Source: Vicugna vicugna
Lineage: Eukaryota
Direction: 5' to 3'
Assembly: GCA_013265495.1 (NCBI GenBank)
Contig: MU057991.1
Location: forward strand, 1-64,000
DNA length: 64,000 nt
Under the pieces are notes generated by a model. The model saw only the letters and a list, made by a program, of their open reading frames with translations, had not been told where the DNA came from and ran no database searches. Both the position numbers and the translations under genes were made by a program. Within the stretch, counting starts at the first letter, position 1. Each line of letters opens with the position of its first letter. Below are positions 13,692-64,000 of the stretch, in pieces.

Positions 13692-13935
13692 CCTGTCTCC
13701 AGGTGGCCGGTCCCCCCCGGGTCCTATGTCTCCAGGTGGCCGGCCCCCCCGGGCCCTGCATCTCCAGGTGGCTGCCCTCCTAGTCCCCCCAGGTGTCTCC
13801 AGGTGCCCCTCCCCCGGCCCTGCGTCTCCAGGTGGCTGGTCCCCCCCGTGTCCTATGTCTCCAGGTGGCTGGTCCCCCCCCAGGCCCTGTGTCTCCAGGT
13901 GGCTGGTCCCCCCCGGGCCCTGCGTCTCCAGGTCA
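13692..13935. repeat. GC-rich minisatellite, ~33-bp unit (ctgYRtctccaggtggctggtcccccccgggcc), about 8 cores
   Basis: tctccaggt recurs at ~13696, 13729, 13761, 13796, 13825, 13858, 13892 and 13925. Four more cores lie at 14402-14510. Confidence 0.92.
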
Positions 13936-14970
13936 CCAGCCCCCACTGTGGTTGCGCTAGGCTGGTCGTAGACGTGAATGGTGACGAAATAAGATCTCCT
14001 GCTCCCCCCTTAGGAGTGTGGATTTTGCTGGTCATTGGGAGATGCTGGTTTTTCATTATCCTGAAGTGCCTGTTGCAGGTCCCATGATATTTGCCTCATG
14101 TCTCATGGACCCCCAGCTTTGTCGCATCCTGAGTGATGGGAAAGAAGTGGTGTGACCTTGCCTCATCGTGTGAAGGGCGTGTTGGGACCGGGGTGGGAGG
14201 GACAGGGTAGGTACCACTCGTGGTCTAGGCGATCGTGGACAGGCCTTTGGGCTCTTCAGAAAAGTTGGAAATCTAGGTTTCTCTGGAGAGTTTCCTTATC
14301 TTAACAGTGCTGTGGGCCAAGCAGAATAAACATGTCCACTGGTGGCCTTTGAAGCTGACCCTTCTCAAGTCACCTGCCAGCAAGGGTTGAGTGAACCTGT
14401 GTCTCCAGGTGGCTGGTCCCCCCCGGGCCCTGCGTCTCCAGGTGGCTGGTCCCCCCCAGGCCCTGCATCTCCAGGTGGCTGGTTCCCCCCGGGCCCTGCG
14501 TCTCCAGGTCGCCAGCCCCCGCTGTGGCTGCGCTAGGCTGGTCGTAGACGTGAATGGTGACGAAATAAGATCTCCTGCTCCCCCCTTAGGAGTGTGGATT
14601 TTGCTGGTCATTGGGAGATGCTGGTTTTTCATTATCCTGAAGTGCCTGTTGCAGGTCCCATGATATTTGCCTCATGTCTCATGGACCCCCAGCTTTGTCG
14701 CATCCTGAGTGATGGGAAAGAAGTGGTGTGACCTTGCCTCATCGTGTGAAGGGCGTGTTGGGACCGGGGTGGGAGGGACAGGGTAGGTACCACTCGTGGT
14801 CTAGGCGATCGTGGACAGGCCTTTGGGCTCTTCAGAAAAGTTGGAAATCTAGGTTTCTCTGGAGAGTTTCCTTATCTTAACAGTGCTGTGGGCCAAGCAG
14901 AATAAACATGTCCACTGGTGGCCTTTGAAGCTGACCCTTCTCAAGTCACCTGCCAGCAAGGGTTGAGTGA
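13819..14970. repeat. 576-bp head-to-tail tandem duplication (13819-14394 / 14395-14970)
   Basis: cgctaggctggtcgtagacg starts at 13955 and 14531, and caagggttgagtga ends at 14394 and 14970. The unique ~440-bp part looks identical by eye. Confidence 0.95.
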
Positions 14971-23199: not shown

Positions 23200-23280
23200 N
23201 NNNNNNNNNNNNNNNNNNNNNNNNNNNNNNNNNNNNNNNNNNNNNNNNNNNNNNNNNNNNNNNNNNNNNNNNNNNNNNNN
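23200..23280. other. Assembly gap (81 N)
   Basis: Run of n characters. Confidence 1.
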
Positions 23281-33323: not shown

Positions 33324-33382
33324 TGTACAGAGGCCAAAAAGCACTGCTGGTATTTCGAAGGACTTTATCCAACATATTATAT
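33324..33382 (+). CDS. VOPP1: VOPP1 coding exon 2 (59 nt; CTEAKKHCWYFEGLYPTYY-I), end of signal peptide and start of Cys-rich luminal domain
   Basis: Acceptor tcttttcttttatttccag| at 33323 and donor |gtaagt at 33383. Translation matches the recalled human/mouse VOPP1 peptide. Phase 0 start, phase 2 end. Confidence 0.96.
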
Positions 33383-39529: not shown

Positions 39530-39984
39530 TGCGGTGGGAAGCCCCATGAAAAGACCAGCAGGACCCCCAGGCAGGGCCACTGCTTTGCCACCCATGCCAT
39601 CATGTTCCCTAGCCCTGCGGTATTATCTTGCTTTTGTGCTTCTGTAAAAGGGCTGGCTTCTAGGAAAGCGAAACGTACCCCTAAGAGTCTATTGATTCCC
39701 AAAGCTCACTCCTGATTGGTTCATTTCTAACACCTCATTTGCATAAAGCTCACTCCTGATTGGTTCATTTGTTACACCTACTCTGCATAGGATGTTGCAG
39801 AATCTTGACTAGTACCCTATAAAATCCTGTGTAAACCCACAGACGGGGTCCAGAGCTTGGAGTGGTAACTCCTCTGGGCCCGCTGGCGTAATAAACCCGA
39901 GTTCTCCAACCCCCCCAGTGTCCCTCGATCTCTTGCCCGGATCCAGGTTGCTGTCACCCTGAGCTGTCACCCTTTGCTGTAACA
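39530..39984 (+). mobile_element. Solo ERV LTR (family copy A; 2 x 44-bp CCAAT/octamer units)
   Basis: TG...CA ends, TATAAAA at 39818-39824 and AATAAA at 39890-39895. Colinear with the LTRs at 53570-53988 and 61977-62705. No clear TSD. Confidence 0.85.
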
Positions 39985-57570: not shown

Positions 57571-57648
57571 ATGTCGCCCCTTCGAGGACTGCTGTGGCTC
57601 CCGGTGCTGCGTGCGGGCGCTCTCCATCCAGAGGCTCTGGTACTTCTG
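57571..57648 (+). CDS. VOPP1: VOPP1 coding exon 3 (78 nt; I-CRPFEDCCGSRCCVRALSIQRLWYF-W)
   Basis: Acceptor ccctctctcccacag| and donor |gtaggt. Phase 2-2, so it joins exon 2 (AT+A=Ile) and exon 4 (TG+G=Trp) in frame. Carries the CC...CC motif of the VOPP1/WBP1 family. Confidence 0.96.
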
Positions 57649-60600
57649 GTAGGTGGTGGCTCTCCCTGCTCCCGGGTGCTCCCCACCCCCAGGGGCCCTG
57701 CCCGGGCAGCTTGTCACGGCCGCAGTGACATCACCCCCACCCCAAGGGCGCGGTCAAGGACGCAGGGACGTCCGGGCTGGCTTCACAGAGTGTGCCTGTG
57801 CTTGGGGAGAAAAGTTCTTCTTTTGGAAACTGGGCTGGACAACAGCCTGGTCCTTCAGTGGCTCTGACCCCAACTCTTAAAGAATCAGAGAATCAGCACA
57901 TCTTGCATGAGGTTTCTGCCGTCTGGAAATCTTCCTTATGCACCTTGTGCCGGCTAAGTCCCGAGACAGACGGCCTGCCTCCCTGTCCATCCTCCGGCTC
58001 TGCTGAGGGAGGCTGGGAGAGCTGTCTGGAGTCTATGAAATTGTACCTTGGGAGGGAACGAGCGAGCCAACCTGACAGAGTGTCCCAGAGGCTGGGCGCA
58101 GGGCTTCTGTTAACGAGAGGGACCCCCCCGTGGCTTGCCATCCTCAAAGGATGCCCGTTTGGAGGTTGGTCTGAGGAGTTCTGACTCTGCAGATAAGAGA
58201 GAGGCTTCAGATGGTAGAGATGGCAGAGCGTGTGCGGGAAGGGGTTTGCCTAAAGCCGAAAAGAGCCTTTCCCGTGCCCGCCAGCCTCTCCTCTGCGCCA
58301 CCGCGGGGGCCAGTCATCCAGGCAGACCCCACGCAGGGGCAGGACCCCGCTTCGTGACTTTCAGATTCGGCCGCTGCTGACTTCTCATGACCCCCAGGCC
58401 TTTCCCCTCTGACAGCTCTTCTGGTGTTTGACTAGGGGAGCCGGCAGGAGGTGGGGGCTCCACGTGCCACGTTGTCCTTCCCAGGAGAGCCTCCGTTCGT
58501 GCTCACCGTCACCACCGCCCTGATGGGACATGGGTCACGGGGGGCCCTGAGCGGTGGCAGGCTGGCGCCGGCTCTTCCCACCTCCCGGTGCTCAGGGCAT
58601 CGAGCTCTGTAACAGGAGGGTTTTTTTAGCCCAAGATCTCTGTGTACGTGTCGAGGTGGAGGTGACTGGTCCCAAAGCGGGGGGGAGGTGGCATTTCAGA
58701 GCTTTGCCTGGCTTCACACGCGCTTCCCCTTGGACCTTGTGGTTGAAGCAGGCAGGACTGTCTGGGGCGTGAGTCCCGGAAGGGTTCAGCCGGGTTGGTC
58801 CGAAGCACCGGCTGAATGATGATAAAGTTGTGGAAATGCTCCTAAAAATGAAAAAAAAAAAAAGTCACAACTAGGTATTATGTGATGAGGAAGAAGGGAA
58901 AGTGGAGCATCCTGGCCGCTCCTGCAGCCTCCGTCGGCCCTCCCAGGCAGCCCTGCCTGAGCCAGCAGCCCCCCGAGCTGCTGGCCGGCGTCACTTGCCG
59001 GGGCCGGGGCGCCTCGGCGGCTCAGGGGGACCCCCACACACGGAGGCGGCTGGTGAGCGCCGTCTAGGGAGGGCGGGTCGCAAGGGGTTGGACTGCCAGG
59101 TGCCGGAGGCCTGGCCGAGTTCTTAGAGCTGAGATTGTGCTGCCAGCTTCTACCCCGGGGACACAGCCAGAGAACACCTTGCTTTGTGAGTCCGAGGTGG
59201 CCCAGCTGAAGTCAGAGGATGCGTGGTCTCCGCTCCACGCTCAAGTGGCTCCTTGTCTCAGTAAACACCAGGTGTCCGGTGCACGCCGGGGCCCCGGGGC
59301 CTCGGGGCAGTCGGGCTCCTGGAGGAGACAGGTGTCTCAACAGATAATGACACCCAGAGGCTTTGAAACCAGCGCTCTGGAAACTGCTGCCCAGGACCTC
59401 AGAGTTGAGCGCTGCTGACCTCGTGCTGGGGCAGGCAGGGAGGGACTGAGGAATCCAGATTCCTTCTGATCCTAGAAAAGGCGCCAACATCCTGTCTTCA
59501 TCCCAGGAAAGCGCCCCCGCCCTGCTCAGCAGTGAAGCAGAGAGGAACCATCCTGCAGCTCACGGCGCTTCCAAGAGATGCTTTCGGCCCCCTTCCCTCC
59601 CTCCCTGACGCCCTGCGTCCTCGCTTTCCTTGTCACCAGAAGCCCGTTCCCTTGTCACCTCTCAGTTTGTCTCTTAAAATAAAGTTGGTCTCCAACTACT
59701 GTTTCAATCAGGGGTGACTCTGGCGATGACCGCCTCCCGCGCCAGGAGCTGGCCTCCTGCGCGTGACGTTGTCTCGTCTGCTTGCACCGACTTGCTCTCT
59801 GGCCGTCCAAGGCGGGAGGTGCACATGGCTTTAATTTTCCTAGGGAAAAATGTATATTCGATTTGATAGTGTGACCAACGTTTTGGCTTATCGCACGGAA
59901 AAGACCAAGACCTCATCCGGCTCCTGCATGTCCAGTGCAGGGAGCCTGGTCTTCTGTTGCTGAGAAAGTAGACCTTTATGTCATTCGCCTCCCTGTGCTT
60001 TGCGCTCCTGCGCTCGGATGCGCGTCGTTGGACCAGGGTTGGATGTAAGATTTTCAGGGAGTCCAAATGAAGCCGTTCCCTTTGTGATTCCAGCGTCTAC
60101 CCTGCTTTGCCAGCCCCCCACACGGCCTGGATTCCTCCAGCTCCCCAGGACTGCACGCCTGGCCCCCTCCCCATCTGCCGCCCACAGTGGTCCCCTGTGG
60201 GTCCCTCGCCCACCCAGCTCTTCCTACGGGAGCACCCGCACGTGTCTTTCCACCCAGAAAGCTCCCCTTCCCTGCCCTCCAACGTGTCTCTTTTTTTTTT
60301 CCCCCATCCTCAGCTGTTTCCAAAGCTCAGCTGTTGCTTTGAAGGAAAGGAAGCTTTTCTGATCTTCCTCATTCTGACATGTACCCTTGTTTAAACCTCT
60401 TATTACCCTGAACAGTACCTTGACGTGATGGAAATGGTCAGTTGTGTGTTATATGTGTTTTACTGCACACACACACACACCTGTGTTGCATCCTTGATTT
60501 TCCTAGAACTACCCGAGTTGTAAATAAATACTTTTGTTAGTTTGTTGTCTCCGGCCCCCCTCCCCTAACAGAACGCAAGTTCAGTGACAGGACCTCACCT

Positions 60601-61482: not shown

Positions 61483-61976
61483 AAATCAGCTTTTTTATTG
61501 ATCGGGAGTGTTTAGTCCTGTGGTTCCTCTGTAATTAAGACGTGCCCTAGAAAGGACGCCTTTTACGTTTTCTTTGTGGGTGGCCGTATGACAACGGGGA
61601 GACGACTGCTGGAACGGAGCGCACGCTTACTCTCCTTGCGGTGCAGAAAACGGGGGGCAGCAGACAGCAAGGAGCAGCCCAGTGTTCAAACAGGACTGAG
61701 AAGGGACCTCCTGTTTTGACTAAGGTGGAGGCGAGGTCAGAGCCACGGACAGGAAAGTCATTGCACCAAGCCTCTGAAGCCAGGAGCCATTGGGATGTGC
61801 TTGAGACAGAAAGCGCACTTTAGAGAGCGTCTCGGTGGGGGTGGCGTGGTCCGGGGGCACCCAGAGCTGGGCAGGCCATGGGACACCTCCACCGGGAACT
61901 GTCCCCGGGGAGAGGGGCCAGGACAGGGCTTTGGGACCTGCCTCTCTAGCCTCGGCCTGAGCTCGGCATGTGCTCT

Positions 61977-62705
61977 TGAGGTGGGACGCCCCAGGAAAAG
62001 ACTGGCAGGACCCCCAGGCAGGGCCACTACTTTCCTGCCAGCACCATCCGGTTCCCTAGCCCGGCGGCATTATCTCGCTTCTGCGCTTCTGTAAAACAGC
62101 TTGCTTCTAGAAAGCAGAACTCACCCCTAAGATCCTGTTGGTTCCCGAAGCTCACTCCTGATTGGTCCACTTCTAACACCTCAGTTGCATAAAGCTCACT
62201 CCTGATTGGCCCACTTCTAACACTTCATTTGCATGAAGCTCACTCCTGATTGGCCCACTTCTAACACCTCATTTGCATAAAGCTCACTCCTGATTGGTCC
62301 ACTTCTAACACCTCAGTTGCATAAAGCTCACTCCTGATTGGTCCACTTCTAACACCTTGTTTGCATAAAGCTCACTCCTGATTGGTCCACTTCTAACACC
62401 TCATTTGCATAAAGCTCACTCCTGATTGGCCCACTTCTAACACCTCATTTGCATAAAGCTCACTCCTGATTGGTCCACTTCTAACACCTCATTTGCATAC
62501 GGTGTTGCCAAATGTTGCAAAGTCTTGACTGGCAGCCCATAAAAGCCTGTGTAAACGTACAGACGGGGTCCAGGGCTCGGAGTGTTAACTCCTCTGGGCC
62601 CGCCGGCGTGATAAACCTGAGTTCTCCAACCCCCTGAGTGCTGCTTGGTCTCTCGCCCGGATCCAGGCTGCTGTCACCACTGAGCTGTCACTCTGAGCTG
62701 TAACA
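61977..62705 (+). mobile_element. Solo ERV LTR (family copy C) ending 26 nt upstream of VOPP1 exon 4
   Basis: TG...CA ends. Probable 6-bp TSD tgctct (61971-61976) / cgctct (62706-62711), differing by one CpG-type transition. Colinear with copies A and B. CATAAAA at 62538 and GATAAA at 62610. Confidence 0.88.
62148..62499 (+). repeat. 8 x 44-bp tandem array in LTR U3 (aagctcactcctgattggYccacttctaacacctcatttgcata)
   Basis: Units start at 62148, 62192, 62236, 62280, 62324, 62368, 62412 and 62456. All 8 contain ATTGG (inverted CCAAT) and 5 contain a perfect octamer ATTTGCAT. Confidence 0.97.
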
Positions 62706-62731
62706 CGCTCTGCTGTGCCATTTCGTCCCAG

Positions 62732-62868
62732 GTTCCTGCTCATGATGGGCGTGCTCTTCTGCTGCGGAGCCGGCTTCTTCATCCGGAGACGCATGTACCC
62801 GCCGCCGCTGATCGAGGAGCCCGCGTTCAACGTGTCCTACACCAGGCAGCCCCCGAGCTCCACTCCAG
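62732..62868 (+). CDS. VOPP1: VOPP1 coding exon 4 (137 nt; W-FLLMMGVLFCCGAGFFIRRRMYPPPLIEEPAFNVSYTRQPPSSTP-G), transmembrane helix and start of cytosolic tail
   Basis: Lies in ORF 62715..63080. Acceptor tttcgtcccag| at 62731 and donor |gtcagc at 62869. Hydrophobic TM segment followed by RRR stop-transfer. Peptide matches recalled VOPP1. Confidence 0.96.
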
Positions 62869-64000
62869 GTCAGCCGCGCCCCAGTCCTTGTCTCTCCTCC
62901 CTGCGCTTTCCGCGTCCTTCTGCAAGCCTTTGGAAAGGGCACTGCCACCGAACATGCTCAGAGGGAAAAAAGAATCAGGCCGCCTGTGTTCACTTAAGTT
63001 CTGGTGGTCAGCCCTCCTGTGCGTTTGTGTCGGTAAAAAATGCACCATCTGTTGTGCTGTGTGTCTGTCACCTCATGTAATCGCCTGATTAGCGGTGCGT
63101 CTTTTATGCAGTTCATAGATGCACGTTATTTGCATTTTCCTTCAAGATTATTTCATGTATATATTATTATGTAGAAACAGTTAAGTGCTTGCCTTTCTTA
63201 ATGCTTCTGGACAAAATATTAATTACGTTTCTAAGTGGTGAAATGACACTTAGATATTCTGTCCTGGCTGACCGTTCGCTTTCTTTTGTTTTGCTTTTTA
63301 TTCATTCATTCATTCATTCAGTGTTCATTGTGCTTTGACTGGTATTCTGAGTACTTACAAATAGCGCTGCTACAGACATTTCTGTACAAGTTCCCTGTTC
63401 AGGGAACATTTCCTAAAGTGGTGCCCCAGGGTCAGAAAGAATTTGTGGTTTCTTAATTCGTGTAAAACACTGCTTTAACTACCTAAAACTCCAAGGTACT
63501 GTGGTGGGTAAATTCGAGTCTCCCTTGGGATGCAGCCCGGTTCCCTAGCTTGACAGTTTTCCCTTTGGGGCCTGAGGGGTGCCAGGGGCTCTAGGGGGCT
63601 GGGGGGAGCCCCCTCTGATGTTCAGGGTTGTTACCATCATTTCAGAAGGTGGGAGGAAATGTTTGGAGGAGATGGATAACTTCATGGCATCTATGTGATG
63701 ATGGCTTCATGGTGTATATTTAATCTCTAAACTCATTAACTTTCAGACATTAAATTTCTTCACCTTTTTGTATGTCCGTCACACCTCAGAAAAATTATTT
63801 TCAAAGGAAAAAGAAAGAAGCAGACGACTGAGGGTGGGAAGAGCTCTCTCCTGCTCTTCAGACACAGAGGTGCGGAGATGGACCTTTGCTGACCTGTCTC
63901 TTAACAGTTTTCTTCTGCCAAATAAATTCTCCCCGGGTTTTTTTTTTTTTAAGAAGCATCTTTATTATTTTTTAAAACGTTGCTCAAAAATCTGAATGTG

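Follow-up and report, generated by a model that had tools for sequence, protein, structure and literature searches.

One of the closest described systems to the one reported here is mouse Cdk2ap1-deltaN, in which a species-specific LTR promoter (MT2B2) gives rise to an N-terminally truncated isoform that other mammals make from other promoters (10.1101/2021.03.24.436683). In the layout of its U3 region, the camelid LTR described below resembles primate LTR12/ERV9, which carries ~41-44-nt tandem repeats with CCAAT/NF-Y sites and a non-canonical TATA ~30 nt before the start, and whose solo LTRs are used as intronic promoter or enhancer (PMC11853044). It also resembles PERV, where the number of 39-bp repeat boxes in U3 varies between family copies (as it does between the camelid LTRs, ~2 versus 8) and can raise activity, though not always (PMC4036542). 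The open reading frame (ORF) of the proposed camelid transcript is that of C9JIM1_HUMAN and other 105-aa records that start at Met68. A literature search returned, among the matches listed, no published LTR-driven or camelid VOPP1 isoform and no account of the LTR studied here (the focal LTR).

A solo LTR in VOPP1 intron 3

We analyzed one 64-kb stretch of DNA, referred to here as the window, which contains three coding exons of VOPP1:

33324..33382, + strand: VOPP1 coding exon 2, the end of the signal peptide and the start of the Cys-rich luminal part (located from its motifs and splice contexts and by a tblastn search with the alpaca protein, P0002)
57571..57648, + strand: VOPP1 coding exon 3, Cys-rich part and first third of the membrane helix
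62732..62868, + strand: VOPP1 coding exon 4, with Met68/Met69 at 62742/62745

The exon-4 translation is identical to residues 65-110 of alpaca VOPP1 at 46/46 positions (P0002, XP_072811644.1) and 98% identical to Camelus ferus VOPP1, so we take the window to hold, on its + strand, the VOPP1 gene of a South American camelid. The alpaca record XP_072811644.1 gives a protein of 172 aa and bears no isoform number; exons 2-4 have GT-AG ends and a reading frame that matches it. Exons 1 and 5 were absent from the 64-kb window when it was searched by tblastn with the alpaca protein. VOPP1 is located on alpaca chromosome 36, described as a chromosome of interest for female infertility (PMC6598621); nothing ties the VOPP1-adjacent LTR to that trait. 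Upstream of exon 2 the window also contains a 98% near-identical tandem duplication (13875-14750, 576-bp spacing) that includes a 33-bp GC-rich minisatellite (13694-13944, 14396-14509), and positions 23200-23280 are an assembly gap of 81 N.

The focal LTR lies in intron 3, and two related copies lie in intron 2:

61971..61976, + strand: 5' target-site copy, a 5/6 match to 62706-62711 with the mismatch at a CpG and the 5-bp core identical
61977..62705, + strand: solo LTR, 729 bp, TG...CA, sense to VOPP1
62706..62731, + strand: 3' target-site copy, host pyrimidine tract and acceptor AG, 26 nt
39530..39984 (ends approximate), + strand: sister LTR copy A, intron 2, sense, with two U3 units, TATAAAA and AATAAA
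53570..53982 (ends approximate), - strand: sister LTR copy B, intron 2, antisense, with TATAAAA and GATAAA

The focal LTR begins with TG at 61977 and ends with CA at 62704-62705, a 3' end shared with sister A and separated from VOPP1 exon 4 by 26 nt. Host sequence lies on both sides of it, with no neighbouring internal retroviral region, and the upstream flank matches intron 3 of other mammals. By every membership test run (termini, duplication, word order, interspersed copies) the element is a solo ERV LTR. Its sense orientation is given by the + strand order of U3 array, TATA-like box, poly(A) word and CA end, with which the sisters, bearing canonical words, are colinear. The sisters were detected by blastn within the window and are two further members of the family; outside the array, the focal LTR is 84-85% identical to sister A and 87% identical to sister B. 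A target-site duplication was sought for sister A and none was found. Judged by motifs, sister A, sense in intron 2, is a better candidate than the focal LTR, both as an internal promoter and as a site where transcripts might be polyadenylated prematurely.

The 5-6-bp length of the duplication points to a class II ERV and the CCAAT array to class I. The ERV data taken from PMC8605555 are class counts. No metagenome contig matched the R-region pattern of the LTR, and no viral contig matched its array pattern; hits of the array pattern to seven metagenome loci were dismissed as chance (matches of only 18-26 bp, with the 33-bp extras at E 0.52). The LTR is absent from the animal that yielded the VOPP1 read-through record P0038, in which the read-through meets exon 4 ~90 nt past the matched flank, versus 855 nt in the window; the insertion is thus lineage-restricted.

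Promoter-like words and candidate splicing signals of the LTR

The following elements bear on whether the LTR could act as a promoter or interfere with splicing:

62148..62499, + strand: U3 array of 8 x 44 bp, with an inverted CCAAT in 8/8 units and the perfect octamer ATTTGCAT in 5/8
62538..62544, + strand: TATA-position word CATAAAA
62565..62572, + strand: expected start site at the U3/R border, placed solely by its distance from the TATA word
62610..62615, + strand: poly(A)-position word GATAAA
62693..62704, + strand: branch-point-like words in U5, CTGAG (A at -35) and GTAAC (A at -28)

The LTR and its 8-unit array are far beyond chance expectation. The units differ by 4.5% in mean pairwise comparison, and three pairs are identical (1=4, 3=7, 6=8), which indicates that the array is young or was recently duplicated. 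The sister LTRs have ~2 units with 1-2 CCAAT boxes and 1-2 octamers, compared with 8 and 5 in the focal LTR; the expanded CCAAT/octamer array and the exon-adjacent sense position distinguish the focal copy from its sisters. The octamer is bound by Oct1, Oct2 and Oct4, and on this ground B cells, germ cells and the embryo are our guess for where the LTR might be active. The segment 62500-62870, consisting of the 3' part of the LTR and exon 4, is CpG-rich (GC 0.60, observed/expected 0.72, where the window has 0.49 and the complete LTR 0.36), and exon 4 may account for much of this.

An array of this type could act as an enhancer rather than a promoter, on the main VOPP1 promoter, on a start region at 61680-61941 (see below) or on a neighbouring gene, with no new protein made. 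Multimerised NF-Y sites are enhancers in LTR12/ERV9 (PMC11853044) and PERV (PMC4036542), and the array lies 200-470 nt from the region matching predicted alternative 5' exons of pig and pangolin. The identical unit pairs, however, are compatible with array growth by neutral duplication; we consider an enhancer role rather improbable.

The first-pass annotation had reported a sense LTR with CATAAAA at 62538 and a non-canonical GATAAA at 62610, no ATG from the TATA-like box to exon 4, and an in-frame Met-Met at 62742/62745 whose second codon has a strong Kozak context. All of these were recovered. CATAAAA and GATAAA each occur once in 61900-63000, where AATAAA, ATTAAA and TATAAA are all missing. 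No ATG is present between 62512 and 62742; the first in-frame ATG (62742) has C at -3, the second (62745) has A at -3 with G at +4, the third comes at 62793, and the frame upstream is closed by an in-frame TGA at 62694.

Although present, the features cited as promoter clues turn out to be family traits or weaknesses. Both sisters are without ATG from TATA to 3' end, and an ATG-free leader is in any case unremarkable: when the bases of the 197-nt leader were shuffled 5000 times, 12% of the products lacked an ATG. A weak poly(A) word is likewise a family trait, shared with sister B (AATAAA in sister A). Of the three copies, the focal LTR has the TATA word furthest from the canonical form: it has kept 8 CCAAT boxes and 5 octamers, yet reads CATAAAA where both sisters read TATAAAA. 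CATAAAA is functional in the beta-globin promoter, and the non-canonical word is therefore compatible with LTR activity.

Among 24 public runs listed, the share of words from 62500-63400 was 0.07-0.14 in 14 RNA or RNA-like contig rows and 0.69-0.74 in the six best-matching rows; four raw-read rows had no index. Exon 4 alone is expected to give ~0.12 and a transcript from the start site to the exon end ~0.31, so that none of the rows has the look of an LTR-exon contig. Because the shares are small, we do not count them as evidence in either direction.

On these features, the LTR may have been exapted as a tissue-specific promoter. NF-Y and Oct factors on the array would switch it on in B cells, the germ line or the early embryo. 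Transcription would run past the poly(A) word, which is weak and lies ~40 nt from the cap, and the Met68/69 protein, with its WW-binding tail, would be produced in meaningful amounts; such a promoter, unlike the protein, would be specific to camelids. Consistent with this are the array content, the TATA-position word, the ATG-free leader, the good Kozak context of Met69 and the precedents of Cdk2ap1-deltaN (10.1101/2021.03.24.436683) and LTR12 arrays (PMC11853044). A full-length LTR in such a position is also rare among fixed elements, with only 101 human sense solo LTRs <200 bp from an exon (PMC3088655). The TATA word, weakest of the three copies, argues the other way, as do points concerning the product taken up below, and we judge exaptation of this kind unlikely, though it is the alternative to which we give most weight.

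The position of the LTR also bears on splicing, since it separates upstream intron 3 from the pyrimidine tract and adjoins the acceptor at 26 nt. Without the LTR and one target copy, a branch-like CTGAG of the host (A at 61960) would stand at -36 from the acceptor. The insertion pushed this word 735 nt away, and the LTR's own CTGAG, at -35, lies at about the matching place. The CTGAG and GTAAC calls follow the branch-point consensus. No AG occurs between 62697 and the acceptor, and the 15 GT sites from the TATA word to the acceptor match the donor consensus at no more than 4/9 positions.

LTRs are depleted within 2 kb of exons, and those fixed near exons have fewer and weaker splice sites; among exon-near polymorphic mouse elements, chimeric ESTs were recorded at 19/44, the chimeric forms being mostly minor, and mutagenic mouse insertions show an over-representation of sense LTRs near acceptors, in the data drawn from PMC3088655. 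That excess, together with the displaced host branch-like word, would fit a mildly disruptive insertion that slows intron-3 splicing or ends transcripts at the poly(A) word, leaving less full-length VOPP1 and producing exon-4-skipped or truncated RNAs. The poly(A) word is non-canonical, however, replacement branch-like words are present and a full-length alpaca protein is annotated, and we hold disruption to be very improbable.

The Met68 reading frame and predicted, possibly older, alternative 5' exons

The Met-Met motif is present in 154/160 VOPP1 proteins collected, 13 of which start there. The 105-aa form starting at Met68 is annotated in human and other simians (C9JIM1, n=13), chimpanzee, orangutan, gibbon, beaver, jaguar and Przewalski's horse. 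In alpaca VOPP1 the first Met after residue 1 is Met68, and hence any transcript without exon 1 would be annotated as the Met68 form; the 105-aa records demonstrate the generality of the ORF, not the existence of a stable protein. The proposal that the LTR represents a lineage-specific rewiring of VOPP1 therefore fails for the product, whose identical 105-aa ORF is annotated in other mammals, and survives at most for the promoter; as judged from these sequences, the product is not a lineage-specific isoform. A Met68 start was found in 0/7 camelid-type records (taken from the 120 best of 265 hits, with 15 of the 104 alpaca-cluster members listed), which also counts against an exapted promoter. 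Oocytes and embryos are seldom covered by annotation.

Upstream of the LTR lies a segment with a possible history of internal starts:

61680..61941, + strand: host intron-3 stretch whose counterparts encode the N-termini of pig X3/X4 and pangolin X2 (predicted alternative 5' exons)

In tblastn searches, four proteins matched 61680-61941, at E 6e-6 (P0132), 4e-7 (P0090), 9e-6 (P0038) and 0.004 (P0022). Isoform X3 of pig aligned at 61680-61724, isoform X2 of pangolin at 61801-61941 and the P0038 read-through at 61761-61877; pig X4 gave a weaker alignment at 61725-61757 (E 0.004), and the camelid sequence has GTG at the position of the pig X4 Met. A donor-like word at 61753 (GA for GT) was rejected as a dead pig X4 donor because its phase is incompatible with the pig protein. 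Intron 3 was matched by 7/38 VOPP1 N-terminal pieces other than exon 3 (E <=0.05), three of them within 300 nt upstream of the LTR, and the flank alone by 3/21 hand-picked pieces at E <=1e-3. Each of 20 random intronic stretches gave 0 or 1 such match (one in 4/20), a control that is partly dependent, the pieces having been chosen after the first N-terminal search. Elsewhere in intron 3, at 59836-59957 (+), an N-terminal piece of a horse VOPP1 model matches (P0159, E 1.5e-4).

The pig and pangolin models with alternative 5' exons in this stretch suggest that internal starts feeding exon 4 may predate the LTR. Their location immediately upstream of it adds to the case for an exapted promoter, less so in that both gene models are computational predictions, compared here at the protein level.

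Translation from Met68 would leave 105 residues and remove residues 1-67, signal peptide included. The first-pass annotation had described this product as lacking the signal peptide, the Cys-rich domain and part of the TM helix. In our measurements 7/10 cysteines are lost, and the short form retains residues 68-81 (14/22) of the uncharged helix at residues 60-81, with the best 19-residue hydropathy falling from 2.24 in the full-length protein to 0.92. With no signal peptide and an incomplete helix, the short form does not qualify as a single-pass membrane VOPP1, and the truncated helix weighs against the exaptation reading. That annotation correctly placed the PPxY motifs beyond the window; they lie in exon 5 (PMC6169085). 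The alpaca tail keeps PPSY (Y157) and PPPY (Y165); at residues 116-119 alpaca P0002 has LPYY where human has PPYY119, the other two PPxY motifs being retained.

PPPY165 binds the WW1 domain of WWOX, and full-length VOPP1 retains WWOX at lysosomes, according to the results taken from PMC6169085. With only 14/22 helix residues and no signal peptide, the short form probably does not reach lysosomes as full-length VOPP1 does; missing from there, it could act as a decoy or simply be degraded.

These elements can be combined into a scenario of promoter turnover for a conserved short isoform. The LTR would have landed between an old Laurasiatherian start region (61680-61941) and exon 4, its array would have grown to eight units, and it would later have become the dominant Met68 promoter in germ line, embryo or B cells. 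The short form, without signal peptide and most of the helix, would bind WWOX through PPPY165 outside lysosomes and oppose or re-route full-length VOPP1. We regard the whole of this scenario as a long shot.

Possible activity of the LTR and comparison with known systems

The explanation that we prefer, and think probable, is that the intron tolerates the LTR, which splicing removes and which gives rise to minor transcripts at most. A solo ERV LTR of the camelid lineage would have entered intron 3 in sense orientation, between the branch-point region and the pyrimidine tract, and been tolerated there; normal splicing would remove intron 3 and full-length VOPP1 would be produced. The LTR appears harmless in view of its U5 branch-point-like words (-35 versus -36 in the host), the lack of a strong donor and the weak poly(A) word. 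It is promoter-competent on paper (NF-Y/Oct array, TATA-like word) and in most cells is likely to be weak or silenced; were it to fire in germ cells, embryo or B cells, the result would be an unspliced transcript of minor abundance, with the Met68 form as its first ORF.

Several results argue for tolerance. Exons and splice sites show no damage and agree fully with alpaca XP_072811644.1, and none of the seven camelid-type records (within the best 120 of 265 hits) starts at Met68. The focal LTR alone of the three copies has a non-canonical TATA word, while its ATG-free leader and GATAAA are common to the sisters. The host CTGAG at -36 is matched by CTGAG at -35 and GTAAC at -28 in the LTR, with no AG downstream, and the hydropathy of the short form drops. 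The splice-site paucity of fixed exon-near LTRs and the minor rank of chimeric forms in mouse, as given in PMC3088655, point the same way.

Other observations pull against tolerance. Annotation of oocytes and embryos is sparse, and the camelid protein sample covers the 120 best of 265 hits. The array far exceeds those of the sisters in CCAAT boxes and octamers, and repeat number can increase LTR strength (PMC4036542). Real TE-derived starts are enriched in full-length LTRs that bear a TATA word (53% versus 27% for ERV1), and such a start supplies at least 10% of output in about half of the genes that have one, in the figures drawn from PMC12963367. The chimeric ESTs at 19/44 exon-near polymorphic mouse elements (PMC3088655) belong on this side as well. 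In our judgement a detectable LTR start in some tissue is quite conceivable, if somewhat short of what we expect; a meaningful contribution of the LTR as a promoter is unlikely, and a functional short protein is decidedly improbable. The sequence observation of the first-pass annotation is thus confirmed and its interpretation partly supported: on sequence grounds, the anatomy allows the proposed transcript, since the LTR has the shape of a promoter, R/U5 contains no strong donor, and the in-frame Met68/69 is not preceded by another ATG.

The comparison with described systems sets the scale of the case. The Met68-start records of the C9JIM1 type belong to lineages other than camelids and are database annotation. 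PERV is class I and replication-competent (PMC4036542), whereas the camelid element is a solo LTR with a 5-6-bp duplication. In LTR12/ERV9 the partner motif is GATA/MZF1 (PMC11853044), in the camelid LTR an octamer, and the likeness is one of architecture. For Cdk2ap1-deltaN the transcript, protein and phenotype are demonstrated, whereas the VOPP1 case is known from sequence and its leader would be unspliced (10.1101/2021.03.24.436683). If inactive, the LTR is a clean example of a sense element surviving 26 nt from an acceptor via its own branch-point-like words, a small event of a known kind. If active, it would be a natural experiment on the need for a membrane anchor in the control of the tumour suppressor WWOX by VOPP1, and would be a second case like Cdk2ap1-deltaN, in which one short isoform is reached through different promoters in different mammals.
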